From IMG/VR virus record IMGVR_UViG_2897369580_000002: a DNA stretch of 40,110 bases. One strand, given 5' to 3'. How positions within the stretch are numbered: the first letter of the stretch is position 1; every line of letters begins with the position of its first letter. This document shows, in pieces, positions 3,159 to 34,675 of this stretch. Made by a program: the position numbers and the translations under genes. Origin of the DNA: a virus (lineage: Duplodnaviria > Heunggongvirae > Uroviricota > Caudoviricetes). The notes beneath the pieces are model-generated. The model saw only the letters and a program-made list of their open reading frames with translations, was not told the origin of the DNA and searched no databases.

Positions 3159-5621
3159 TCAATTCCCTGTTAATTGCAAAACTTGCTCTTCCAGCTTTTT
3201 AACCCTGCGTCTCATCATCGCAGATTCCAGAATCAGAGCCTCTTCATAACGGATACCGTAACATTCACCAGCCTCGACGGCTTCGCGTACCAGAACCTTT
3301 GTCTGTATAAGTGGGTAAACTCCTGCAGAATGCTCTTCTTCCGTCACATCCCTGTATTCTGCCGGGGTCTCATTCCACTTGTCATAACAGATAAATGCCA
3401 GTCGTGACACATCTATGCCTTCATTCTGAAATACACTGATAACATGCTGCGCAACTGCACCAAAGTGCCATCTTGCTCCGTCTTTACCTTTCACTTCGAT
3501 CCTGTCAAGGTACTGGTATGAAACCCATTCCACTCTTTCCCATGCGTCCAGTATTTTCTCATCAATAACCTCTGGAGCAGTCTTGAAACGCGCATCGGAC
3601 AGCACCGTAAACGCTGACTGGGTAAATCCCCCCGACCATGCACGACCAGCCAACCCAAGAGAATAAGTATTCGTTGTCGATGGTGTCATGGCTGAATCAG
3701 AAAACTGTATATATTCTGAATTTCCAGTAGATATTCGAATATTTCCATTTATTAGCGACATAGTGCCTTTAGTATTATCACTATTGAATAATTTCAATTG
3801 CGAACTTATACCGCCTCCCACAGCCAGAGATACATCGCCTTCAGCAAGCATTCTGAATTTATCTGCAGAAACAAGCGTCTGGTTAGCAAGGTTAAAATAT
3901 TTAACCCACCATTCAAAACGCCCTGACATAGTCCCAACGTACTGACCAAGCGCAGGGACGTGAACAACATTGCTATTTGTAGTGCCGTCTATACTGGAAA
4001 TACCAGTCACCGCTGATGCAGAACTCAGAATATTATTTCTGTCACCCGGATGTTTAATTTCAACAAAGTTCCTGATACACCCTTCCTCGAAGGTAACCAC
4101 GCCGGAAGAACTATACATGGGGAATATTGACGCATAATTACTGCGTGCAGCATCTAAGAAACGAATGGTTGTAGATGTCTGCAGATCTCCTGATTCATTT
4201 TTCCCATCACACCCAGTCATTAGAATATTACTGGCAATATTATTATTTCCCTGAACGGTGACTCCGTGCGCCTGCTTTGCGTCCGATTCAGAGTAATCAA
4301 CCAGCACATTCGAAATCAGGTTACCAGTCCCCTTGCCAACAACTACTGCGGCGTATTTTGGGTTGTTAGCCATTACACTGCTAATGATATTATTCGTTGG
4401 GGCAGTTTCCGTCTCAGTTCCATTGTAAACAACGTGCTGACACTCTTCACCAATAACATTGCTGACAATGTTATATTTTGCTGCTGTTTTAAGTTCCACT
4501 GCACCAAACTGAGGATAATTTCTGGCTATCACACCATCAATTAGCGTATTTTGCGATGAATCAAAAAGCACACAACCTGCTTTTTTATTATTTGCGAACC
4601 CTAAATACTCTCCTCTTATATCTCTAACAATGTAACCTGACGGAATACCATTATTCGGATAAGCGATCAAGCTAAATCCTGTTCCTCGCGTATTTGTAAA
4701 TCTGATATTTTTAACCGATACATCATGGCCACCTGAAAATGACACCTGGTGTCCCTGCACACTATCATCTGATTTATTTCCCATAATTGTTAGCGTACTA
4801 AGCATGCCACCATCGGGCATGTTAAAAACCAGATGATTACCATCTCTGTCATACTGTTTTATCGTTCCCCCACCTGTTCCGTACAAGCCACAACGTGAAA
4901 GAGAAACTAAAGATGTATTGAATACCCCTTCCGGAACAAAAACACTGCTAAACGAATGTAATGATTTTGTAAAAGCATCCTTGTTATCATTTAAGATTCC
5001 ATTTTGAGCTCCAAAATCCTTAATGCTGACACCATCACGCATCTTATCCTGGAACGTTCTGTATACCGCTCCAGAACCATACTGAATAAACCAACCAAAA
5101 CCACCAATAACTCCGGCGATTGCAGCATCGACATAATTACGCATTGAGCGATTATTTACAGCGTCCTGCTCAAGTGATGGATCGGCAAGGTTAGATATTC
5201 TGTTTTGCTTTGCATCGTAATATTTTGCAAGCAAAGATGGTTTCATCAATGCACGTCTGAACCACCCAAAACATCGCTGGATCAGCATCGTCAGGTAGTC
5301 AAATGCATCCTCATGAACTTCGGGGAAAAATTTTCCCTGATTGCGAAGATCAGTCTCCTGCACCACATCAAGCACACGCTCTATCGTGATTCGCCAGCCA
5401 GCAGCAAGCGGCGACGGAAGAACCACTGCACCGCCACTATAAGTTCCCGCCCCTGTTACCGTATAACCAGCATCCAGCACTAGTTTTGTAACGTTACCGT
5501 TAAGGTCAGACACCTGAACAACCAGGTCGGATTTTTTGAAAATACGGAAGGTATACGGAAATGATGTCGTAACGCCGTTACCTGTGTATTCGTTGTGGTC
5601 AACTTCGGTTGAGACCGTCAT
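3159..5621 (-). CDS. tailspike / tail fibre with beta-helix domain and C-terminal intramolecular chaperone (peptidase S74-like)
   Basis: Central pectate-lyase-like signature (GVSIKDFGAQNGILNDNKDAF); C-terminal ~146 aa begin with SDARFK auto-cleavage-type motif typical of self-cleaving chaperone domains; RBS GGAG. Confidence 0.8.
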   Translation of the reverse strand: MTVSTEVDHNEYTGNGVTTSFPYTFRIFKKSDLVVQVSDLNGNVTKLVLDAGYTVTGAGTYSGGAVVLPSPLAAGWRITIERVLDVVQETDLRNQGKFFPEVHEDAFDYLTMLIQRCFGWFRRALMKPSLLAKYYDAKQNRISNLADPSLEQDAVNNRSMRNYVDAAIAGVIGGFGWFIQYGSGAVYRTFQDKMRDGVSIKDFGAQNGILNDNKDAFTKSLHSFSSVFVPEGVFNTSLVSLSRCGLYGTGGGTIKQYDRDGNHLVFNMPDGGMLSTLTIMGNKSDDSVQGHQVSFSGGHDVSVKNIRFTNTRGTGFSLIAYPNNGIPSGYIVRDIRGEYLGFANNKKAGCVLFDSSQNTLIDGVIARNYPQFGAVELKTAAKYNIVSNVIGEECQHVVYNGTETETAPTNNIISSVMANNPKYAAVVVGKGTGNLISNVLVDYSESDAKQAHGVTVQGNNNIASNILMTGCDGKNESGDLQTSTTIRFLDAARSNYASIFPMYSSSGVVTFEEGCIRNFVEIKHPGDRNNILSSASAVTGISSIDGTTNSNVVHVPALGQYVGTMSGRFEWWVKYFNLANQTLVSADKFRMLAEGDVSLAVGGGISSQLKLFNSDNTKGTMSLINGNIRISTGNSEYIQFSDSAMTPSTTNTYSLGLAGRAWSGGFTQSAFTVLSDARFKTAPEVIDEKILDAWERVEWVSYQYLDRIEVKGKDGARWHFGAVAQHVISVFQNEGIDVSRLAFICYDKWNETPAEYRDVTEEEHSAGVYPLIQTKVLVREAVEAGECYGIRYEEALILESAMMRRRVKKLEEQVLQLTGN

Positions 5622-5724
5622 GTTAAATCTCCAGATAGTCGCAGCACCCGTTGCGCCGCATATCTGGTTATTCTATTACCCAAAAAACCATATATGGATA
5701 GAAAGACTGTGAATATGAATAGAT

Positions 5725-5741
5725 ATTACCTTTCAGGTAAT
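5725..5741. promoter_or_regulatory. palindrome ATTACC-N5-GGTAAT (TTACC-N5-GGTAA family, copy 1)
   Basis: ATTACCTTTCAGGTAAT, perfect 6-bp arms; in divergent region between tailspike and the LexA-box gene. Confidence 0.6.
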
Positions 5742-5777
5742 TTGCAAAACGTGCTGGATAGCAAACAAATTATTTGC

Positions 5778-5797
5778 TACTGTATAAATATACAGTT
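5778..5797. promoter_or_regulatory. LexA (SOS) box
   Basis: TACTGTATAAATATACAGTT: CTGT-N8(AT-rich)-ACAG, near-consensus; about 20 bp upstream of the RBS of the 5818 gene. Confidence 0.75.
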
Positions 5798-5817
5798 ATT
5801 GCATGGAGAAGATTAAG

Positions 5818-6075
5818 ATGCAGCAGTATCACTATCCACTGGAAGAGGGATTTACCGAAAGGATTCACACGCCGGGAGGCGTCAGGTCACTGGTGGAGGG
5901 ATCGCACTTGATGAAATTACTCCGGGATCTCGATAAGGATGGATTTAATGTCGATGGCCCACTTGCCGAACTGACTGCACTGATTAACTACGTCACCAGC
6001 TCACAGATGTCTATGCAGGATCTGCAAACACATCTCGACTATTGTGCCGAACAATTACGAAAACAAACCAGATAA
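5818..6075 (+). CDS. small protein homologous to the C-terminal domain of the adjacent antirepressor
   Basis: ATG at 5818 with RBS GGAGAA (alternative ATG at 5803); aligns with the C-terminus of the 6391-7086 product (LMKLLRDLDKDGFNVDGPLAELT vs LMNLLNQLQEDGHDVSGAAAELT; DLQTH vs DIQTH). Confidence 0.6.
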   Translation: MQQYHYPLEEGFTERIHTPGGVRSLVEGSHLMKLLRDLDKDGFNVDGPLAELTALINYVTSSQMSMQDLQTHLDYCAEQLRKQTR

Positions 6076-6106
6076 GGTTTGCAATCACCAAATGGAGTGC
6101 TTATAT

Positions 6107-6121
6107 TTACCTTTGCGGTAA
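6107..6121. promoter_or_regulatory. palindrome TTACC-N5-GGTAA (copy 2)
   Basis: TTTACCTTTGCGGTAAA at 6106-6122. Confidence 0.55.
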
Positions 6122-6390
6122 ATTTACAACGCACTCCTCTTGTGCCATAGTAATCGAGCACTGGCAAAATCCAGTGCCGGGATTGGCGTCCCGGATTACT
6201 AAAAGGCGCATTCACCGCGCAAGCGGTTTTTTTATGCGTATAGCACGGCCACATTCGTATTATGGTGGGCTGTGTGGGGGCACCGAAAGGTGCGCCGGGT
6301 CCTTTTAGCCGGTTACGCCAACCCTGCACAGTTCACCACCAACCGATTGGCGTCGGTAGTGGTGATTAACCAGACTAAAAGGTAACCACT

Positions 6391-7086
6391 ATGACAGCTA
6401 CAAAAAGCACGTCCATTTTTTCTTTCGAATCCCAAGCCGATATACGGGTAATCGTCATTAATGGTGAGCCATGGTTTATCGCTTCAGATGTTTGTCGGGC
6501 TATAGGCATAGCAAACCATCGAGATGCTGTTCGAAAACTTGATGATGATGAGAAGGGCGTCGCTTCAACCGACACCCCTGGCGGTGAGCAAGAATCGATC
6601 ATCATCTCCGAGTCAGGCCTCTACACACTGATCCTCCGCTGCCGCGACGCAGTGACACCAGGCACTATCCCCTACCGCTTTCGTAAATGGGTTACAGGTG
6701 AGGTTCTTCCTCAGATCCGCCGCACCGGAAGTTACATTAAAAACTCGCTCCCGCAGGAAGAACGCATAAAGATGGTTGCCGACCAGGTAGCCAACGCCAC
6801 GGCGTCAGCAGTAATGCAGGCGATGAAGATAGAGAACAAAACCTACAGTGCCCCACTGAAGCCCGGCTACCGCAGCCTGATTCATTCGCCGTCTGGTGTT
6901 CTCGGCCTGACGGAGAACTCACTGCTGATGAATCTGCTGAACCAGTTACAGGAAGACGGGCACGATGTATCGGGCGCGGCGGCGGAGCTGACCACCATGT
7001 TCTGCTACATCGTCGGTGTGAGCAAATGCCTGCGTGATATCCAGACCCACGCGGAGTACATCAACGACAAAGCAGGATTCTTCTGA
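6391..7086 (+). CDS. Bro-N domain antirepressor (Ant-like)
   Basis: N-terminal Bro-N signature (FSFESQADIRVIVINGEPWFIASDVCRAIG); RBS AAGGTAACC; C-terminal domain shared with the upstream small protein. Confidence 0.75.
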   Translation: MTATKSTSIFSFESQADIRVIVINGEPWFIASDVCRAIGIANHRDAVRKLDDDEKGVASTDTPGGEQESIIISESGLYTLILRCRDAVTPGTIPYRFRKWVTGEVLPQIRRTGSYIKNSLPQEERIKMVADQVANATASAVMQAMKIENKTYSAPLKPGYRSLIHSPSGVLGLTENSLLMNLLNQLQEDGHDVSGAAAELTTMFCYIVGVSKCLRDIQTHAEYINDKAGFF

Positions 7087-7158
7087 CGGGCGGCGGCACA
7101 GGGATGTGCCTTTAAATAATTCTGTACAGATTGCAGACCGGGGGTGAATAGCGTACTA

Positions 7159-7173
7159 TTACCTTAAAGGTAA
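7159..7173. promoter_or_regulatory. palindrome TTACC-N5-GGTAA (copy 3)
   Basis: ATTACCTTAAAGGTAAA at 7158-7174, upstream of the 7216 gene. Confidence 0.55.
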
Positions 7174-7215
7174 ACCTGTTTTTATTTTATACCTGTAACT
7201 TACCGGAGATTAAAG

Positions 7216-7542
7216 ATGACAAAACTTGGATTCGTGATGAGAGGTCCGGTAAGAAGCGGAACTCATGCAAAGCGTAGCAAGAGTCGTATTTTTACTGGTA
7301 AGGTTGTAGCACGTAAATCAGCTATTGGCTCGTTCAATAGTGAAAATGCGGCATTGCGCCATATTTTTATCAGCACAAAGCCAAGAGCATCCGCTGATGT
7401 GCATACAATGTCTATTCCTATCACAAAGAATATCAAGCGGATAAAAAAGCTCTCATCTGCAGAATCAAAAGAGATATCTTTCCGCCAGCTTAACTCATTA
7501 GAAACGCATATGAAGGAAGAGGAATTCGATGTTTTTGAGTGA
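7216..7542 (+). CDS. hypothetical basic protein (AT-rich cargo operon, gene 1)
   Basis: ATG with RBS GGAG; Lys/Arg-rich; visibly lower GC than surrounding phage DNA; overlaps next gene. Confidence 0.5.
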   Translation: MTKLGFVMRGPVRSGTHAKRSKSRIFTGKVVARKSAIGSFNSENAALRHIFISTKPRASADVHTMSIPITKNIKRIKKLSSAESKEISFRQLNSLETHMKEEEFDVFE

Positions 7543-8041
7543 GTATAGCGGGAAGGTTATACCTACTGGTGAGTTTAAAACTGATGACTTTCTGATTTCG
7601 CTAAAAGATGCTTTTAAACAACACTGGCGTCATGGTCATCATCCTGATCTGGGAAAAGATACTCTTTTTGAAAGACCAGACGAAGTATTAGGCTTCCATC
7701 TCAGAAAGGTTCATGTCAATATTGGTGAATATGCATCATATTCATACTCATGTACTGAACAGTGTTGGGATGAGTGGTCATATGGATTGATTGATGAACA
7801 AGGAAATTACAGGCCAAAACCAACCAGTAACGCATATCTCATATATGCAGTCAATGAAATAAGAGATGCAGCCTTACTAGCTTATTGGGACCCGCCCGCA
7901 CACACCAAAGCTAACGCAAAAGTTTGGATGGATTCCGTATTGAATTTCACAAAATTATTTCATGAACGAACGAATACAGCTCCACTTAGTAGAAATGTTT
8001 ATCCGTGGGATTATTCGTACAAATCCAAAAAGCCTGCATAG
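7529..8041 (+). CDS. hypothetical protein (AT-rich cargo operon, gene 2)
   Basis: ATG with RBS AAGGAAGAGGAA; start overlaps end of gene 1 (coupled); aromatic and His-rich; no recognisable motif. Confidence 0.5.
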   Translation: MFLSEYSGKVIPTGEFKTDDFLISLKDAFKQHWRHGHHPDLGKDTLFERPDEVLGFHLRKVHVNIGEYASYSYSCTEQCWDEWSYGLIDEQGNYRPKPTSNAYLIYAVNEIRDAALLAYWDPPAHTKANAKVWMDSVLNFTKLFHERTNTAPLSRNVYPWDYSYKSKKPA

Positions 8042-8122
8042 TAGTTTTTTATGGACGAAACAAAAGTCAGTGCTACACTCATTGACGCCACATTGAGGTG
8101 GCTTATAGATGGAAATTTCACA

Positions 8123-8284
8123 ATGAAAAAAGCATTTGCTGCACTGTTCGTTTTGTTGTCTCTGGTAGCTTCAACTCAGGCCTTTGCCGGTCGTTGTCAG
8201 CACGACAGCGACACTGCTGCTGACGGCTCCCGCTGCGGTGGGCGTTCTGCGGATTCCCGCCCGGGTGGCGGTGGCATTCGTTAA
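8123..8284 (+). CDS. small secreted Gly/Ser/Arg-rich peptide with two Cys
   Basis: Internal ATG gives MKKAFAALFVLLSLVASTQAFA signal peptide then ~31-aa mature peptide; weak RBS; alternative TTG/ATG start at 8051 in ORF track. Confidence 0.35.
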   Translation: MKKAFAALFVLLSLVASTQAFAGRCQHDSDTAADGSRCGGRSADSRPGGGGIR

Positions 8285-8306
8285 AAACAAGGCCGCGAAA
8301 GCGGCC
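8281..8306 (-). terminator. rho-independent terminator ending the minus-strand structural transcript
   Basis: GGCCGC-gaaa-GCGGCC hairpin, followed on the minus strand by TTGTTTTTAA. Confidence 0.6.
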
Positions 8307-8307
8307 T

Positions 8308-8319
8308 GTGACATGTCAC
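8308..8319. repeat. 12-bp palindrome GTGACATGTCAC (copy A)
   Basis: Perfect palindrome; identical 12-mer also at 26008-26019 and 28282-28293. Confidence 0.7.
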
Positions 8320-8320
8320 G

Positions 8321-8881
8321 CTACATTGATATATGATTCATAAAGTAGCTTAAAGATTTACTTCCCAGAAAAGAAATTTCTTTTCCTGGATATGTCGCAA
8401 TAATTGAGCATGACTTATCCCCGTTAGAGGTAACAAATCCTGAATAACCTACTTGTTCTTTACCATTTTGTTGCTTGGCTAAAAAGTAGAGGTAGCTTAT
8501 CTTTTTGCCCTCTGGGTAAAACTCTGCCAAACCAGTATCGGTGATTGAATATTTTATTCTCCCGCCTTGAGTAACGTTTTCCATCTCAAGTTTAGCTATG
8601 TCTTTTCTGTTGTATTCAGCATTGATTTTCCTTTCGAAATCAATGTTGTTTTCAAATGAGTAGGAAGCAACAGTCTGAATAGATGGGAACACGTTTATCT
8701 GGATGCCCCCACAGTCGGCACAGGTATAAAGGTATGAATCAGATGGAATCCCCATAAAAGAAAACTGAGTTACCTTAAATTTATCGCTATCTCCAAAGTA
8801 TTGAAGTTCGCATTTAACATTTTGCCCTGCAAAAGAAAATGCAGACATCAATATTGAAACAAAAAATATAATTGCCTTCAT
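8321..8881 (-). CDS. secreted protein of unknown function (AT-rich, end of structural operon)
   Basis: ATG; signal peptide MKAIIFFVSILMSAFSFAG; AT-rich coding; directly follows the 849-aa internal protein. Confidence 0.55.
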   Translation of the reverse strand: MKAIIFFVSILMSAFSFAGQNVKCELQYFGDSDKFKVTQFSFMGIPSDSYLYTCADCGGIQINVFPSIQTVASYSFENNIDFERKINAEYNRKDIAKLEMENVTQGGRIKYSITDTGLAEFYPEGKKISYLYFLAKQQNGKEQVGYSGFVTSNGDKSCSIIATYPGKEISFLGSKSLSYFMNHISM

Positions 8882-8883
8882 TA

Positions 8884-11433
8884 TTATTTACCTAGCATGA
8901 ACTGCGATGGTGGGATCAGAAAGTCGTTCCCCTGCTCACGCTCAACACGGCGCTGATAACGCTCAAGAGAGCCTGGGTCAAGGGCATCTTGTATCCGGTT
9001 CAATATTAAACCATTCATCGCCGTACGAAGCCAGAACACGTTGAGGAATGGCGTATTGTCAAGTGCCGTGCGATACCAGTCACCCAAATCTGCATCCCCT
9101 CTCGTGGTCTGCTGGAGCAGCGTGATAATGCTGTCAGCGTTCGATGCTGCTGGCCCCATTAGCGACGTAACCGGCCCGGCCCCCATGCGGTTGACCTCAC
9201 CAAACATGAAGTCACCCAAGATGCCAAGACCGCCCCCCTGAGATGCGGCTGCGAGAAACGTCTTGGCATCTGCCGGGCGTGGTGTTTGCCCTTTCAGCAT
9301 GAGTTTTGACTGCATGGAGATATAACCAAACATAGTCGCCCAGACAAAGAGGTTTGCAGCACCAAGGAAAGCCCCCTTCCCGTTACGTAGCAGCGCATTC
9401 GTCAGCGATCCGGTTTTCGACTCACCAAGCCCAGCAGGAATATAACCACGCCCGAATACTTCGCGTCCTAGTACGTTCTGCATGAAGCTTGCAGTGAACG
9501 ATTTGTACTGACCAGCGAATCGTATTGCTTCCCCAGCCACCGTTCCTGGCACCGTGCCCATCTTCATAAACGCCTGCGTGCGATCGCCAGGCTCTGACAT
9601 GGCGATATTCAGACGGTCAAGGATGTAGCCGCGCAACTGCCCTTCCAATTGATCGCGTGCGTCAGCGATAGCGCGCTGCGTTGGTTTGATCCCCTTACTC
9701 TCTACATAACCGGCAATCACTTCGTCAGGCACGCCGCGGATGCCGCTGGTCGTCATGAACTTACGACCTTCGCTATCGGCCATGTCCATGTTGCGAAAAA
9801 TTTCCCACTCACGTTCGCCAATACCGTGCAGATCCAGCACGCGTCGCAGGTCTTCCGGTAGCCGCGCATGAGACTGGTCAGCATTCTTTGCAAGCCAGTT
9901 GGTTATCATCATGGCGTTGCTGTTGCGACCGCTCTCGGTCCAGAAGTTCATGAGGTTGTACTTAAAGAAAAGCTGCTGCGCGCGACCAAGCTTTCCATTC
10001 AGCGTGTCATCACCAGATATGCGCCGGATGATTTCCTGCGTCATGGAGTCGGAATAAACTCCGATAGAGGAAAGGATCTCTTTCTGCTCCGCGCTGTTGT
10101 AACGCGTGAAGCGGCCTCTCATAGCACCAAGCAACGCCTGCATAAAATTCTGCCCTTGGTAGCGCATCTCGGTAGCGGCGATAGGCACGTCGTTAAACGA
10201 TGAGATTACCGCGCCACCAAGTTGGCTCATACGCAACCAGCCGCGTACAGCCGCCGACGCATTGGCCCAGCCTACGCTGCCAGGAATATTTAGCGAGCCG
10301 TCAACCTGCGGCATTACGGTACGGTTAATGCGACGCACCTTCGTCATGTAGTCAGCCAACGCTGCCGGTCTTCCGGATTTGCTGATATCTTCAGCAATGG
10401 CGTCCGTCAGGTACTTAAACATGTTCTGTGGGTTAGTGCCCAGTACGCGCATCATGCCCGTTGTGCGGGCAGCGCTGTTTAAGCCACCAAACAGCGCTTC
10501 TCGCAGGCTGCCGGTGCCGAATTGCTGGTTGTACTCGTGCCACGAGATACCATCTTTGAAGTGCAAAATTCGCTCTTGGCTGGCGCGTTTAGCTGCGTTC
10601 GCCGATCCCTTAAAGCCATTCATCCAATCGGGCTTTTCAGATGTAAGATGCACGCCGGAAGCCAGCCCGTTATAAATGTTACGCATGAACTGCTCGCGGT
10701 CAGCCACGCCGTCAAAAGTGCGCTCATCAAGGCGCGGGAGAATAGCATTTCGCCATGCTTCATAACCTGCGGCGCGGATCTTCATGATGTCGTGTGACTG
10801 GCGCACTATATAGCCCGGCTCTTTGCGTATCCATGCCCCGGCGCGGTTCTCATCAATGCGCGCAGTTTCCTGCCATTTCATGATGATTTGTGCAGCGCTT
10901 ACGGATTGCTTTGTCATACCGTCAGTTGACTGCCCGCGCCCTATGCGCCACATTGCATCGGCAATTTCCCGGTCATTGCTGCCGCTGGCGATGAATTGCA
11001 CCAGCCCGGCACGGTCAAAATCGTAGTTGATACCGGAATGATACTTGCCGCGCAGTTGCGCCACCTCCGAAGATACCGACCGGCGGGCGCCGGTACGCGC
11101 ATCGTTGCGGCCAACCAGCATTGCTTCAAGCCCGATATCCGGGCGGTCTTTCCAGATAGTACGAAGCTCTCTAAGTCGTTGTGCGGCAATACGGGCGTCG
11201 ATTGCCTTATTGCGAGCCTCAATCTGTTTTGCCAGCATATCGGCATTGCTCAGTTCTTCCGCTGCGCGCATCGCGGCCTCTTCCAGAGACAGCGCCTCAT
11301 TGGTCGCCAGAATTCGCCTAGTGGTGTCGTTCATGTCACGCACCAGCGACTCCATCTCATCGGAAGAAAGCTCGCGACCAGCGGCAGCATTTACACTGCG
11401 CTCGCACTGCGTCAAAAATTCGTTTGCTGCCAT
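8884..11433 (-). CDS. large internal virion / ejection protein
   Basis: ORF-track start at 11436 is GTG; ATG at 11433 with RBS GGGGGA overlaps the stop of the upstream gene (ATGA); large mostly helical protein in the structural block. Confidence 0.6.
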   Translation of the reverse strand: MAANEFLTQCERSVNAAAGRELSSDEMESLVRDMNDTTRRILATNEALSLEEAAMRAAEELSNADMLAKQIEARNKAIDARIAAQRLRELRTIWKDRPDIGLEAMLVGRNDARTGARRSVSSEVAQLRGKYHSGINYDFDRAGLVQFIASGSNDREIADAMWRIGRGQSTDGMTKQSVSAAQIIMKWQETARIDENRAGAWIRKEPGYIVRQSHDIMKIRAAGYEAWRNAILPRLDERTFDGVADREQFMRNIYNGLASGVHLTSEKPDWMNGFKGSANAAKRASQERILHFKDGISWHEYNQQFGTGSLREALFGGLNSAARTTGMMRVLGTNPQNMFKYLTDAIAEDISKSGRPAALADYMTKVRRINRTVMPQVDGSLNIPGSVGWANASAAVRGWLRMSQLGGAVISSFNDVPIAATEMRYQGQNFMQALLGAMRGRFTRYNSAEQKEILSSIGVYSDSMTQEIIRRISGDDTLNGKLGRAQQLFFKYNLMNFWTESGRNSNAMMITNWLAKNADQSHARLPEDLRRVLDLHGIGEREWEIFRNMDMADSEGRKFMTTSGIRGVPDEVIAGYVESKGIKPTQRAIADARDQLEGQLRGYILDRLNIAMSEPGDRTQAFMKMGTVPGTVAGEAIRFAGQYKSFTASFMQNVLGREVFGRGYIPAGLGESKTGSLTNALLRNGKGAFLGAANLFVWATMFGYISMQSKLMLKGQTPRPADAKTFLAAASQGGGLGILGDFMFGEVNRMGAGPVTSLMGPAASNADSIITLLQQTTRGDADLGDWYRTALDNTPFLNVFWLRTAMNGLILNRIQDALDPGSLERYQRRVEREQGNDFLIPPSQFMLGK

Positions 11434-13130
11434 CACATCCCCCGGTTAATCATACAGGCGGCAAATGCCCGGAAAGCGTTGCTCATGCTATTGTCGCTGG
11501 CGTCGGCACGAATATCATTGAGTTTCTGGCGCAACGTGGTCGCAAGATCAGGGTTATCGACAGCGATATCGTCAAGCAGGGCGTTACTCAGGTTGAGCTC
11601 GTTATCAAGGTCTGCAGCGGCAGCGGTAATTTCATGATCTGCCTTTTGCGTTTCTTGATAAACCCGATCGGCTGTTTCGCTTGCTGGGCGAGCCGTTTCA
11701 TCAACCTGCCGTGCCGGGTTCTGTATGCGATGGATGGCGCGTTCACGCAGTGCTGGTTTGTGCAGTTCATAGAAGGGCTCAACATCTGGGCTACGTCCTT
11801 CCATCATGTGTGCCAGCGCAGCGCGATACGCCTGCTGGTTCACGTTCCAGTCAGCATCCCTGATGGCGCTTGCGGCAGTGCGAACTGCGCCAGCGACCGG
11901 CGACATCTGCATGCCGTCCAGGATCTGCTGCGCACGCTCGGAAATGGTGACTTTCAGGTCGTCGGGGATCTCGCCGCGGGAAATCTGAGACTGGCGCCAG
12001 CGCGCCTGCTCTGCTGTCGCGTTCTGCTCCAGCGATGTGTTGATCTCCTGATTGCGTGCAGCGATGGCGTCTTTCTCGGCCTGAATCTCTTTCAGTGCCC
12101 TAGAGCGCGCATCCTTAAACTTCATCCGCTGCCCCTGATACTTTTTGGTGCGCTGCTGCAGCGTCGCATCAAGCGAGTCAGCATGACGTTGATTAGCCGC
12201 AAGCTCGGCACGCAGGTCGGCAACGTTACCGATCTGCCCGCTCTGTAACTCCTGCTGGCGCGCCATATAGTCAGGAACCACGTCGTCATAAGCTCGGCTG
12301 TATGCGTAGCTCTCCGCTTCACTGGAAATGGCCGCCGCCAGATCTGCGTTAGCGCCAACCTCAGGGATATTCACGCCCGCCGGAATGTTGTCAGGCGTTA
12401 TCACTGGGGTTGGCTGCGCATCGCCAGAAAACGCCGGGGACTCTCCCGTTGCAGCATCGGGAACGCGACGCGGTCGCACGATATCGGCGATAAGGCCGCC
12501 GCCGGCATGCATTAGACCGCCAGCCATCGTGTTAAAGAAAGTACTTTCCAACGCGTTGCTATAGGTGAAGTCGTCACCTTCCGCCGCCGCTGCCAGCCCG
12601 GTAAGCGGCACGGTCACCAACGCCTGCGCTGCCCCCATGCGTGCACCAGCAACAAATCGCTCGCCAAATCGGCCAAGCACAGAAGCCGCCTTTGCTTCTC
12701 CAGCGAACGGAACCAGCGCCAGCGCCACGTTACCAGGATCTGCCATTGAACCAGCTAGGCTGGCTGCGAAATTAAGCGGCGTGGCTACCCACCCGCTCGG
12801 TGCCGACATCGCGATCTGCTGGCGTGCCAGAGAATCTTTGCGTTCGGCAATAACATGATCGAGAAAAGCCTGCGTAACGCCAGAATCTGGCACGTTTATG
12901 CTCTTTACGCCGTACTGCTTCAGGAGCTCATCCGCTTCCTGCTTACTGATAACTGTAGAGTTTGGGTCATTCGCCAGCGAGTCGGCCTGCGCAAAGCGGT
13001 AGCCGGACATGACCGGCCCCTCTTCAAATCCCTGCTTAAGGGAAGAAAGCAGCGATTCGCCAAGCCCTGCTGGCGCGTTGCCAATTGGCTGGTTAATTCC
13101 CTGTCCCGGATCATCTGTGTAAATTGGCAT
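11433..13130 (-). CDS. internal virion / ejection protein
   Basis: ATG start overlapping the upstream stop (TAACATG); Ala/Gly-rich N-terminal part and charged helical C-terminal part. Confidence 0.55.
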   Translation of the reverse strand: MPIYTDDPGQGINQPIGNAPAGLGESLLSSLKQGFEEGPVMSGYRFAQADSLANDPNSTVISKQEADELLKQYGVKSINVPDSGVTQAFLDHVIAERKDSLARQQIAMSAPSGWVATPLNFAASLAGSMADPGNVALALVPFAGEAKAASVLGRFGERFVAGARMGAAQALVTVPLTGLAAAAEGDDFTYSNALESTFFNTMAGGLMHAGGGLIADIVRPRRVPDAATGESPAFSGDAQPTPVITPDNIPAGVNIPEVGANADLAAAISSEAESYAYSRAYDDVVPDYMARQQELQSGQIGNVADLRAELAANQRHADSLDATLQQRTKKYQGQRMKFKDARSRALKEIQAEKDAIAARNQEINTSLEQNATAEQARWRQSQISRGEIPDDLKVTISERAQQILDGMQMSPVAGAVRTAASAIRDADWNVNQQAYRAALAHMMEGRSPDVEPFYELHKPALRERAIHRIQNPARQVDETARPASETADRVYQETQKADHEITAAAADLDNELNLSNALLDDIAVDNPDLATTLRQKLNDIRADASDNSMSNAFRAFAACMINRGM

Positions 13131-20995: not shown

Positions 20996-21046
20996 CTTCT
21001 TTCTCCATTAGTGGGTCTGTTACGACCCACAGGTTAATAACAGGCG

Positions 21047-25366: not shown

Positions 25367-25443
25367 GTGGTATTAGCTCAGTTGGACAGAGCAACCGCCT
25401 TCTAAGCGGTTGGTCGCAGGTTCGAATCCTGCATGCCACGCCA
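25367..25443 (+). tRNA. tRNA-Arg (anticodon TCT), phage-encoded
   Basis: Hand-folded cloverleaf: acceptor GTGGTAT/ATGCCAC, D-arm GCTC..GAGC, anticodon stem ACCGC/GCGGT with loop CTTCTAA, T-arm GCAGG-TTCGAAT-CCTGC, discriminator G, encoded CCA. Confidence 0.9.
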
Positions 25444-33570: not shown

Positions 33571-33801
33571 TCATGAGTAGAAGAAGTATGCCAGTTCTGC
33601 TTTTGAGCGCAACCATTGTCTTGTTTTACAGGCTTTAAAAAGCCCATTCATCAATACTTTACCTGGCATTTTGCGCTTACCTGTTAAGTGAGTCTGGATA
33701 TAGTGACTCGTCGTTCCGGCTTCCTGTGCGAAGGCTTCACGCTCATCCGGAGTAAGTGCAAGCCAGTGCTTTTTGAAATCGAAATGTCCGTTATCGCTCA
33801 T
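33571..33801 (-). CDS. Cro-like small HTH regulator (first gene of rightward/early-replication operon)
   Basis: 76 aa, divergent from the repressor gene; HTH-like segment EAFAQEAGTTSHYIQTHLTG. Confidence 0.5.
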   Translation of the reverse strand: MSDNGHFDFKKHWLALTPDEREAFAQEAGTTSHYIQTHLTGKRKMPGKVLMNGLFKACKTRQWLRSKAELAYFFYS

Positions 33802-33837: not shown

Positions 33838-33868
33838 TCACCCATAAGGTAACAAAAATCAAGGATAG

Positions 33869-33883
33869 TTACCTATGAGGTGC
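33869..33883. promoter_or_regulatory. degenerate TTACC-N5-GGTGC palindrome (copy 9)
   Basis: GTTACCTATGAGGTGCA at 33868-33884. Confidence 0.4.
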
Positions 33884-33885
33884 AT

Positions 33886-33900
33886 TTACCCGTTGGGTAA
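33886..33900. promoter_or_regulatory. palindrome TTACC-N5-GGTAA (copy 10)
   Basis: TTTACCCGTTGGGTAAT at 33885-33901, between divergent Cro-like and repressor genes. Confidence 0.55.
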
Positions 33901-33955: not shown

Positions 33956-34540
33956 ATGAAAAGTATCCAGGACGTCCGCAGGCAAAATCTCAACGACTTG
34001 ATCGACCGTGAATTCAATGGTGTTCAGACGCGGATGGCAGAAAAACTTGGAACTCAGGCAAATCTGGTAAACCGCTGGGCTCTTGGCAAGAAGGTTATCG
34101 GCGACCAGGTTGCGCGAAAAATTGAAGCTGCCGCCAATAAACCACGTAACTGGCTTGATATCGATCGCTCGCTTTCTCAGGAAGGTTTTCAGCCTGTCGG
34201 CCCAAGCGACATTGGTCAGCTGGCGGCTCACAACCTGGAACGCTGGATGAGCGAAAGCCGCGACCTTTCAACACAGGGAAAACTTCACCGCGCATCCGGC
34301 GTCGCCCAGGTGACAATCAGCCGCCTGTTAAACAATGAGGTCAGCGTTTCCATTTCCACCCTGGAGAATGTTGCATCCGCATTCGGGCGTCACGGCTATG
34401 AATTACTGATTCACCCGCACGACCCTGCGACCATCAACTATGACCGCTCGCGCTACGCATTGTTACCCGAAACCGAGAAAGCAAAGATCGAAAGTTATAT
34501 TGAATTTGTCATCAACCAGAACGAAAAAAACAAACAATAA
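33956..34540 (+). CDS. prophage repressor candidate with tandem HTH domains, no autocleavage domain
   Basis: Two HTH-like regions (QTRMAEKLGTQANLVNRWALGKK and GKLHRASGVAQVTISRLLNNEVSVS); no Ala-Gly / Ser-Lys peptidase S24 signature seen; own terminator. Confidence 0.55.
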   Translation: MKSIQDVRRQNLNDLIDREFNGVQTRMAEKLGTQANLVNRWALGKKVIGDQVARKIEAAANKPRNWLDIDRSLSQEGFQPVGPSDIGQLAAHNLERWMSESRDLSTQGKLHRASGVAQVTISRLLNNEVSVSISTLENVASAFGRHGYELLIHPHDPATINYDRSRYALLPETEKAKIESYIEFVINQNEKNKQ

Positions 34541-34597: not shown

Positions 34598-34612
34598 TTA
34601 CCTAATAGGTAA
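34598..34612. promoter_or_regulatory. palindrome TTACC-N5-GGTAA (copy 11)
   Basis: ATTACCTAATAGGTAAT at 34597-34613, perfect 6-bp arms. Confidence 0.6.
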
Positions 34613-34632: not shown

Positions 34633-34659
34633 TTGACATCAAACCAAATACGCATAATT
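34633..34659 (+). promoter_or_regulatory. sigma70-like early-left promoter
   Basis: TTGACA (34633-34638), 15-16 bp spacer, CATAAT/ATAATT (34654-34660); operator-like palindrome begins at 34660. Confidence 0.55.
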
Positions 34660-34660
34660 A

Positions 34661-34675
34661 TTACCTCAACGGTAA
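34661..34675. promoter_or_regulatory. palindrome TTACC-N5-GGTAA (copy 12), overlapping early-left promoter -10/+1
   Basis: ATTACCTCAACGGTAAC at 34660-34676. Confidence 0.6.

Follow-up and report, generated by a model that had tools for sequence, protein, structure and literature searches.

A putative LexA-controlled antirepressor switch and an adjoining isrK-C4 cassette in an epsilon15-like prophage

How could a prophage respond to DNA damage when its repressor carries no self-cleavage domain? This question is raised by positions 5726-7086 of IMG/VR record IMGVR_UViG_2897369580_000002, a Caudoviricetes sequence of 40,110 nucleotides, the whole of which is called the window here. A first-pass annotation, made from the letters alone, had placed a LexA (SOS) box in front of a small gene and a Bro-N antirepressor gene, and had predicted that the prophage is induced through a LexA-controlled antirepressor rather than through RecA-mediated cleavage of its repressor. 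Our answer, to which we give a probability of about 0.8 as a whole model, is that the small gene and the repressor gene would form a LexA-Ant-Rep switch of the SPC32H type, and that this switch would be adjoined by a cassette of the phage P1 type, in which a second antirepressor is gated by RNA.

The stretch 5600-7200 shares 95-99% DNA identity with the Escherichia phages phiV10 (95.6%), vB_EcoP_ZX5 (99%; ZX5 below) and TL-2011b, and 77% with Enterobacter phage Tyrion. All four are Uetakevirus (epsilon15-like) podophages, and the window is a prophage of this phiV10/epsilon15-like kind. The features discussed below are collected in Table 1.

The LexA box, Ant and Rep

The box in front of the small gene is near-consensus, as had been claimed, with 2 mismatches to the 20-mer LexA consensus. 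It is the sole match with at most 3 mismatches in the 40-kb window, and 100 shuffles gave none. Its heterology index (Lewis-type) is 1.6, while the median of 19 E. coli SOS boxes is 5.4 and the next-best 20-mer of the window reaches 11.3. Two other sites of the form CTGT-N8-ACAG, at 21017 and 25559, have GC-rich spacers and were regarded as chance occurrences; the latter has an index of 13.2, and the former is absent from the 20-mers scoring below 15.

We aligned the region of six phages whose hosts belong to four genera (Escherichia, Enterobacter, Klebsiella and Salmonella), namely the window, phiV10, Tyrion, a Klebsiella prophage, SPC32H and epsilon15. The box has the same position in all of them and its spacer is variable, but the CTGT and ACAG half-sites are intact in five, the Klebsiella copy having ATGT for CTGT. 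In SPC32H, for example, TACTGTATGTTTATACAGTG stands as far ahead of the ant start codon as the box does in the window. One could still suppose that the box arose by chance or is a relic, and that the prophage is induced by another route, such as spontaneous loss of the repressor or another host signal; lysogens of ZX5 do release 1e7 PFU/mL spontaneously. This supposition is very improbable in our view. Besides the result of the shuffles and the half-sites kept beside a variable spacer, with the single Klebsiella substitution, the index of the box beats those of most genuine E. coli boxes, the SPC32H orthologue of the small gene is reported to be LexA-controlled, and ZX5 responds to mitomycin C with a rise in titre from 1e7 to 1e9, which is 100-fold (PMC9782041).

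The small gene directly behind the box had been correctly placed and delimited, but it had been left anonymous, and it turned out to encode a proven type of antirepressor. Its 85-aa product has a sole match among solved structures, the SPC32H chain 5D50_E named “Anti-repressor protein” (E 1.6e-47, aa 2-84), and tblastn puts its identity with SPC32H Ant at 89%; we call the gene ant. The product falls in phrog_450 (E 1e-47), a family labelled “unknown function”, and homologues are present in 35 of the 36 phage records that hold a Rep homologue (50,697 records searched). Pfam gave nothing significant for it, DUF724 being sub-threshold (17.6 bits; cut-off 38.4), and no Tum/DinI family was found in Pfam at E<=0.01, a direct comparison with the Tum sequence not having been made. 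A widely annotated “hypothetical protein”, that of phrog_450, is in this way identified as an SOS antirepressor.

The product of the repressor gene matches the other partner of the same complex. Over its full length it aligns with PDB 5D50_A, “Repressor” of SPC32H (E 4e-42, 42% identity), and it is 100% identical to the repressors of phiV10 and ZX5 (ORF21 in ZX5); 5D50 and 5D4Z are the structures named for SPC32H Rep-Ant. The absence of an S24 signature, which had been noted before, was borne out: Pfam returned only HTH families for Rep, Peptidase_S24 being absent, and no LexA/UmuD-like ORF was found among the stop-to-stop ORFs of at least 50 aa in all frames of the window (best E 0.79).

Ant is conserved far more than Rep between the window and SPC32H (89% vs 42%), yet the operator half-sites are the same. 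This contrast suggests that Ant, or a small conserved surface of Rep, is under strong constraint. In the work of Kim et al. in 2016, the N-terminal domain of Rep reportedly binds DNA, and residues 92-198 are said to be a tetramerisation domain that binds Ant.

Rep probably binds operators of the form TTACC-N5-GGTAA that are spread over the genome. Allowing at most 1 mismatch, we found 14 such sites in the window, against 0.53 expected, and they precede both late-gene and early operons. SPC32H has 18 sites, at places equivalent to those of the window. Three sites between rep and cro are common to both, and the pair at 34598 and 34661, which flanks a strong early promoter (34633-34675) just downstream of rep, also has its equivalent in SPC32H, as do others in front of late operons and the one upstream of ant. 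The operator upstream of the ant promoter is kept in the six phages with a variable spacer, and the RefSeq record of epsilon15 labels such palindromes as repressor sites, its equivalent of this operator being entered as “protein_bind repressor”.

The predicted ant promoter has its -10 within the LexA box, and both of its hexamers, TGGATA and TACTGT, are kept in the six-phage alignment. An alternative promoter using TTTGCA (5741-5746), which abuts the palindrome, was set aside; an acceptable -10 is lacking and the sequence is unconserved, and TGGATA-17-TACTGT was preferred.

The RNA cassette and the second antirepressor

The ant gene and the Bro-N gene are separated by 316 bp. The RNAs, the terminator, the internal promoters and the operator palindromes that we located within 5726-6390 are all absent from the first-pass annotation. 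Two promoter-like sites, P1 and P2, which are found as a pair in Tyrion and the Klebsiella prophage too, are followed by an isrK-type RNA, by a predicted and likewise conserved terminator with a short, 5-bp stem, and by a C4 antisense RNA. Both RNAs score above the gathering scores of their Rfam families, while the c4-a1b1 family RF03163 matches 6145-6197 slightly under its cut-off (43.1 bits, cut-off 46.7).

The Rep-type operator between the two promoters is kept in phiV10, Tyrion and the Klebsiella prophage. At promoter P1 the junction of -10 and operator, TATATT-TACC, has the same geometry as the junction AATTAT-TACC (34656-34675) at the early promoter 34633-34675, so Rep would repress P1. 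The operator abuts the -35 of P2, a promoter that Rep could either repress or activate.

The RNAs carry matched pairing segments. The C4 loop a' is exactly complementary, over 8 bp, to CUAAAAGG, which occurs both in isrK (a1) and ahead of the Bro-N gene (a2), and b' is exactly complementary, over 9-10 bp, to GAUUGGCGU(C) at b1 and b2. We compared the C4 pairing in eight phages: the window, Tyrion, the Klebsiella prophage, an Stx2a phage, APSE-8, SfV, a Yersinia phage and 2H10. It turned out that a' varies among them and that the a1/a2 copies of each phage vary with it, cognate combinations giving 8-12 contiguous bp and non-cognate combinations mostly 3-7; covariation of b' with b1 and b2 was seen in Tyrion and APSE-8. 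In all eight phages, a2 lies on the Shine-Dalgarno sequence or the start codon of the downstream antirepressor gene. Duplex energies calculated for the whole C4 core with the leader RNA gave no separation of cognate from non-cognate pairs. They are uninformative because b' is common to most of the phages, and the contiguous pairing of a' only was used instead.

The isrK-C4 pair matches in 279 phage records, and an antirepressor-type ORF follows it in every fetched, annotated locus (Stx2a_F723, SfV, 2H10, APSE-8 and the Yersinia phage). For the APSE phages, the records and a paper annotate the same elements (PMC7313666). SPC32H and epsilon15 have only the small ant, with isrK, C4 and the Bro-N gene all absent. 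In the three composite phages scanned (the window, Tyrion and the Klebsiella prophage), the cassette follows ant immediately and has the same orientation, and no terminator was found between the ant stop codon and isrK.

The Bro-N gene is present where it had been annotated, with a clear Bro-N domain. When the P22-type ANT/KilAC C-terminal domain was sought in its 231-aa product, Pfam returned Bro-N only. The C-terminus, instead, matches 5D50_E (E 1e-13), the Ant of the window itself (42% identity, E 7e-16) and phrog_450 (E 4e-36), and the protein is described here as a Bro-N::Ant fusion. It is 100% identical to ORF4 of ZX5. Such fusions are common among Enterobacteriaceae, with full-length relatives (70-99% identity) in Escherichia, Salmonella, Citrobacter, Enterobacter and Klebsiella. 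Behind isrK-C4 in Stx and APSE phages are antirepressors whose C-termini are unrelated to that of the fusion, which would fit a modular design with the C-terminal domain setting the target. The putative Rep-binding domain of Ant is a portable module, of which a duplicate has been joined to Bro-N and brought under the predicted control of an antisense RNA.

Some existing annotations of these loci are listed as side observations. The record of ZX5 has a 37-aa “ash family protein” at window positions 6272-6385 (L012 1872-1985), wholly over C4 and the b2/a2 targets; its reading frame is unconserved in related phages, and the entry seems to be an artefact of annotation due to the conserved RNA. The “orf37: immunity region” of SfV likewise spans isrK and C4. 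In Yersinia phage vB_YpM_41, a ryfA RNA match (172-470, 134.6 bits) is located about 1 kb upstream of the isrK-C4 cassette.

Table 1. Positions of the switch, cassette and operator features in the window (empty cells: no entry)
Feature	Position	Strand	Details
Rep-type operator TTACC-N5-GGTAA	5726-5740		upstream of ant promoter, divergent from tailspike gene
Predicted ant promoter	5755-5783	+	-35 TGGATA 5755-5760, 17-nt spacer, -10 TACTGT 5778-5783
LexA (SOS) box TACTGTATAAATATACAGTT	5778-5797		20 nt upstream of the 85-aa gene
ant, antirepressor	5818-6075	+	85 aa, orthologue of SPC32H Ant; Shine-Dalgarno GGAG 5805-5808
P1, promoter-like site	6079-6107	+	TTGCAA-17-TATATT
Rep-type operator TTACCTTTGCGGTAA	6107-6121		between P1 and P2; overlaps P1 start region, abuts P2 -35
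P2, promoter-like site	6123-6151	+	TTTACA-17-TGcCATAGT; start ~6158, the isrK 5' end
isrK-type RNA	6158-6233	+	Rfam RF01394, 77.9 bits (gathering score 50)
C4-target copy b1 in isrK	6181-6190
C4-target copy a1 in isrK	6199-6206
Intrinsic terminator ending isrK	6214-6227 (stem)	+	U-run to 6233
C4 antisense RNA	6258-6343	+	Rfam RF01695, 77.7 bits (gathering score 45)
C4 loop a' CCUUUUAG	6301-6308
C4 segment b' ACGCCAACCC	6315-6324
C4 target b2 GATTGGCGTC	6345-6354	+	just after C4, in the leader of the Bro-N gene
C4 target a2 CUAAAAGG	6375-6382	+	covers Shine-Dalgarno AAGG, 8 nt before ATG 6391
Second antirepressor gene (Bro-N::Ant fusion)	6391-7086	+	231 aa; Bro-N aa 17-107 (Pfam E 2.3e-21), Ant-like C-terminal domain aa ~148-229
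Operator cluster	33838-33900		between rep and the divergent cro-like gene (33571-33801, - strand)
rep, SPC32H Rep-type prophage repressor	33956-34540	+	194 aa, no peptidase S24 domain
TTACC-N5-GGTAA palindromes, 14 starts	5494, 5726, 6107, 7159, 8505, 25030, 28172, 28190, 31517, 31579, 33838, 33886, 34598, 34661

Possible wiring of the two antirepressors

In the proposed mechanism, lysogeny would be kept by the non-cleavable, SPC32H-type Rep. LexA would sit on its box in the lysogen, overlapping the -10 and the start of the ant promoter. DNA damage would remove LexA, and the 85-aa Ant that is then made would bind Rep and take it off the DNA. We infer this LexA-Ant-Rep induction from the orthology with SPC32H. 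The central prediction, a LexA-controlled antirepressor acting on a non-cleavable repressor, is supported by that orthology, by the conserved box and by the absence of an S24 domain, but the system itself was already known.

The downstream part would be a separate cassette of the P1-immI/Gifsy-1-isrK type, consisting of tandem promoters, a Rep operator, isrK decoys, a leaky terminator, C4 and the fusion gene. Because the Shine-Dalgarno sequence of the fusion is the C4 target a2, C4 would keep the fusion untranslated, and the balance of isrK decoys and C4, together with the occupancy of the operator by Rep, would decide the timing of its synthesis. The putative C4 block, the decoy role of isrK and the control of at least one cassette promoter by Rep are read from sequence and covariation. 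Since the Rep-binding domain of the fusion is the same as that of Ant, the fusion most likely attacks the same Rep; it may reinforce the commitment once Rep falls, and/or act in anti-immunity at superinfection.

The first-pass annotation had treated the two genes as a single antirepressor module behind the box. This stands for Ant, while the Bro-N gene is not a simple second cistron, given the terminator, its own promoters and the C4-targeted ribosome binding site (RBS). In its strongest form, such a module would be one LexA operon extending over 5818-7086, with the Bro-N protein as the SOS antirepressor, the small gene as an accessory and the RNAs without regulatory weight. It turned out, however, that the orthologue of the characterised Ant is the small gene and not the Bro-N gene. 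LexA-controlled transcripts would enter the cassette through the terminator-free junction seen in the window, Tyrion and the Klebsiella prophage, and the isrK stem of only 5 bp has a Gifsy-1 counterpart that is read through (PMC4825925), but the cassette has conserved promoters and an operator of its own, and an RBS under a covarying antisense target. Besides, although the Bro-N protein does act as an antirepressor on overexpression in ZX5, SPC32H and epsilon15 manage with the small gene alone and the phiV10 fusion is frameshifted. Taken together, we consider a single LexA operon quite unlikely.

The main rival explanation is that the switch and the cassette are independent units. LexA and Ant would then serve induction, and the cassette would be a superinfection or anti-immunity device only, like those of P1/P7 and the immI of P22: an incoming phage would express it against the immunity of related prophages, a resident C4 of the same specificity would silence it, and it would have no role in the SOS response. 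The variation of a' among phages with matched targets is a hallmark of immI heteroimmunity types, and the regular occurrence of isrK-C4 ahead of antirepressor-type ORFs, with the pair in 279 records, agrees with such a device, as does the term “putative anti-immunity protein” by which the phiV10 record names its Bro-N gene. The Rep operator at the cassette promoter, on the other hand, ties the cassette to the state of the resident switch, and the homologous cassette of Gifsy-1 drives induction of the resident prophage. Salmonella members without the cassette remain inducible, which again agrees with independence, but the three composite phages all have the cassette directly after ant, on the same strand and across a terminator-free junction. 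We regard full independence as possible, though somewhat unlikely.

The opposite arrangement would be a tight coupling of the two controls. Because no terminator lies between ant and isrK, SOS-induced ant transcripts should end in isrK. A feed-forward switch might follow, in which the SOS signal is coupled to the release of the second antirepressor via the shared ant-isrK transcript; we offer this tentatively and think it rather unlikely. Each ant mRNA would carry the a1/b1 decoy at its 3' end and titrate C4, while Ant would clear Rep from 6107-6121 and derepress the promoters of the cassette. Translation of the second antirepressor would be unlocked, and induction would become irreversible. 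If this is true, the phage has connected its antisense-RNA immunity circuit to a host protein signal (LexA) by way of a shared transcript, and a locus with coupled controls would be a compact model of a host damage signal combined with an RNA-based immunity circuit.

Several points weigh against the model of an SPC32H-type switch with an adjoining RNA-gated cassette. The predicted ant promoter failed a stringent consensus scan; read from the sequence without passing that scan, it is an inference. Rep could also influence ant through the operator 5726-5740, which would complicate a LexA-only switch, although this operator may instead belong to the divergent tailspike promoter. In phiV10 (3287-3966), a frameshift within the Ant-like domain splits the Bro-N gene into ORFs of 194 aa and 29 aa; the fusion is therefore probably dispensable, and phiV10, the type phage of the group, is probably without a functional second antirepressor.

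The remaining points concern the RNA. No conserved leader ORF similar to icd or orf45 was found ahead of the Bro-N gene. The ORF from a conserved AUG in C4 has 35 aa in the window, 15 aa in Tyrion and APSE-8 and 8 aa in the Yersinia phage, and in the Klebsiella, SfV and 2H10 loci it stays open over all of the 100 codons translated; with its length unconserved, we rejected it as an equivalent of P1 icd or Gifsy-1 orf45 lying over C4. Since a conserved leader ORF was not found, the details of coupling would differ from the P1 and Gifsy-1 models. The read-through RNA, moreover, is predicted to fold with a1/b1 paired to a'/b' in cis (z = -4.7) and with the Shine-Dalgarno sequence in a loop, so the sign and timing of C4 control would depend on RNA processing. 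This cis-paired fold resembles the inactive and active isoforms of Gifsy-1 IsrK (PMC4825925).

Several parts of the model are already known, that is, the Rep/Ant pair of SPC32H with its crystal structure, C4, isrK and a1b1 as Rfam families, and Bro-N antirepressors with overexpression data in ZX5. In the searchable literature, we found no description of two antirepressors combined in this manner, sharing a Rep-binding domain and lying 316 bp apart, one under LexA and the other under C4 and a Rep operator. The gain is incremental, since the basic LexA-Ant-Rep logic was already established. Still, at least 238 of 5,426 complete E. coli genomes carry a member of the prophage family, which includes the O157 serotype-converting phiV10, and its induction now has a probable mechanism assigned.

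Genomic setting and comparison with known systems

The setting of the module is as had been described, far from the immunity region and on the strand opposite to the late genes. The distance to the immunity region is 28 kb, and the module is on the + strand, flanked by - strand genes for the tailspike (3159-5621) and a virion protein (8884-11436). The window also encodes an integrase, lambda-P-like and DnaT-like replication proteins and the divergent rep/cro pair.

Downstream of the fusion, 7216-8881 holds four genes without counterpart in phiV10, where a small membrane-protein gene comes directly. Their products have 108 aa, 170 aa, 77 aa and 186 aa (the last on the - strand). The 170-aa product has a weak, sub-threshold match to YafO_toxin, and the 77-aa product falls in a phrog annotated “membrane associated protein” in the moron category. 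PADLOC gave zero matches for the four genes, all of which are in PHROGs of unknown function. A Rep-type palindrome (7159-7173) precedes the first of them, and ZX5 has at least the first two. The segment is probably a moron insertion. Besides, a tRNA gene (25367-25440, + strand, Rfam 71.1 bits) is located between the terminase and head gene blocks, and the SPC32H record has a tRNA-Arg annotated between its terminase and head genes.

Among the known systems, SPC32H shares the orthologous Ant and Rep, the place of the LexA box, the TTACC-N5-GGTAA palindromes at equivalent sites, and the location of ant between a virion gene and the tailspike gene; in SPC32H, the neighbours of ant are a small membrane-protein gene on one side and the tailspike gene, which is divergent, on the other. 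It differs in that its ant stands alone and is followed by a terminator, whereas the window adds isrK, C4 and the Bro-N::Ant gene downstream. For Salmonella prophages, a passage of PMC7380047 that cites Kim & Ryu 2013 describes how self-cleavage of LexA allows Ant to be made, which inhibits the repressor by protein-protein contact. For SPC32H itself, a passage of PMC9638917 describes a tetrameric Ant that binds two Rep dimers and breaks the DNA-binding Rep tetramer.

The immI region of P1/P7 is similar to the cassette in its C4 RNA model, with decoy targets upstream and targets over the antirepressor RBS downstream. Tandem promoters, one of them overlapped by the operator of the prophage repressor (Op51/P51b in phage P1), are a further likeness to the window. 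The dispersed palindromes of the window, too, recall the scattered C1 operators of phage P1. Unlike P1/P7, the window has no conserved icd-like leader ORF, its fusion is not P1 Ant1/2, its repressor is an SPC32H-type Rep and not C1, and its cassette comes immediately after a LexA-controlled ant.

The isrK operon of Gifsy-1 is transcribed, but translation of anrP has to await the action of IsrK in trans, which leads to prophage induction (Hershko-Shalev et al. 2016, PMC4825925). The isrK-orf45-anrP locus has the same order as the window: isrK with a leaky terminator, then a processed RNA (STnc1160), then a translationally silent antirepressor. The coupling ORF orf45, however, is unconserved in the window, the target in Gifsy-1 is the AntQ/Gifsy repressor circuit, and no LexA-controlled paralogue is reported upstream.

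ZX5 offers experimental data on proteins identical to Rep and to the fusion. Overexpression of its ORF4, the Bro-N antirepressor, cut lysogens from 1e9 to 1e6 (~1000-fold), and overexpressed repressor abolished free phage (PMC9782041). The same paper has 0 occurrences of LexA; in the ZX5 record, the small ant is a “hypothetical protein” and no RNA gene is annotated in the stretch.

Finally, 186 (Tum), Gifsy (GfoA/GfhA) and N15 (AntC) follow the logic proposed for the window, with a non-cleavable repressor and a small, LexA-repressed antirepressor to inactivate it, but searches of Pfam and of the solved structures with the window Ant revealed no sequence relationship to these proteins. The likeness to 186, Gifsy and N15 drawn in the first-pass annotation is thus sound as a functional analogy and not as one of family, for which the closest system is the Rep/Ant pair of SPC32H among the epsilon15-like phages.

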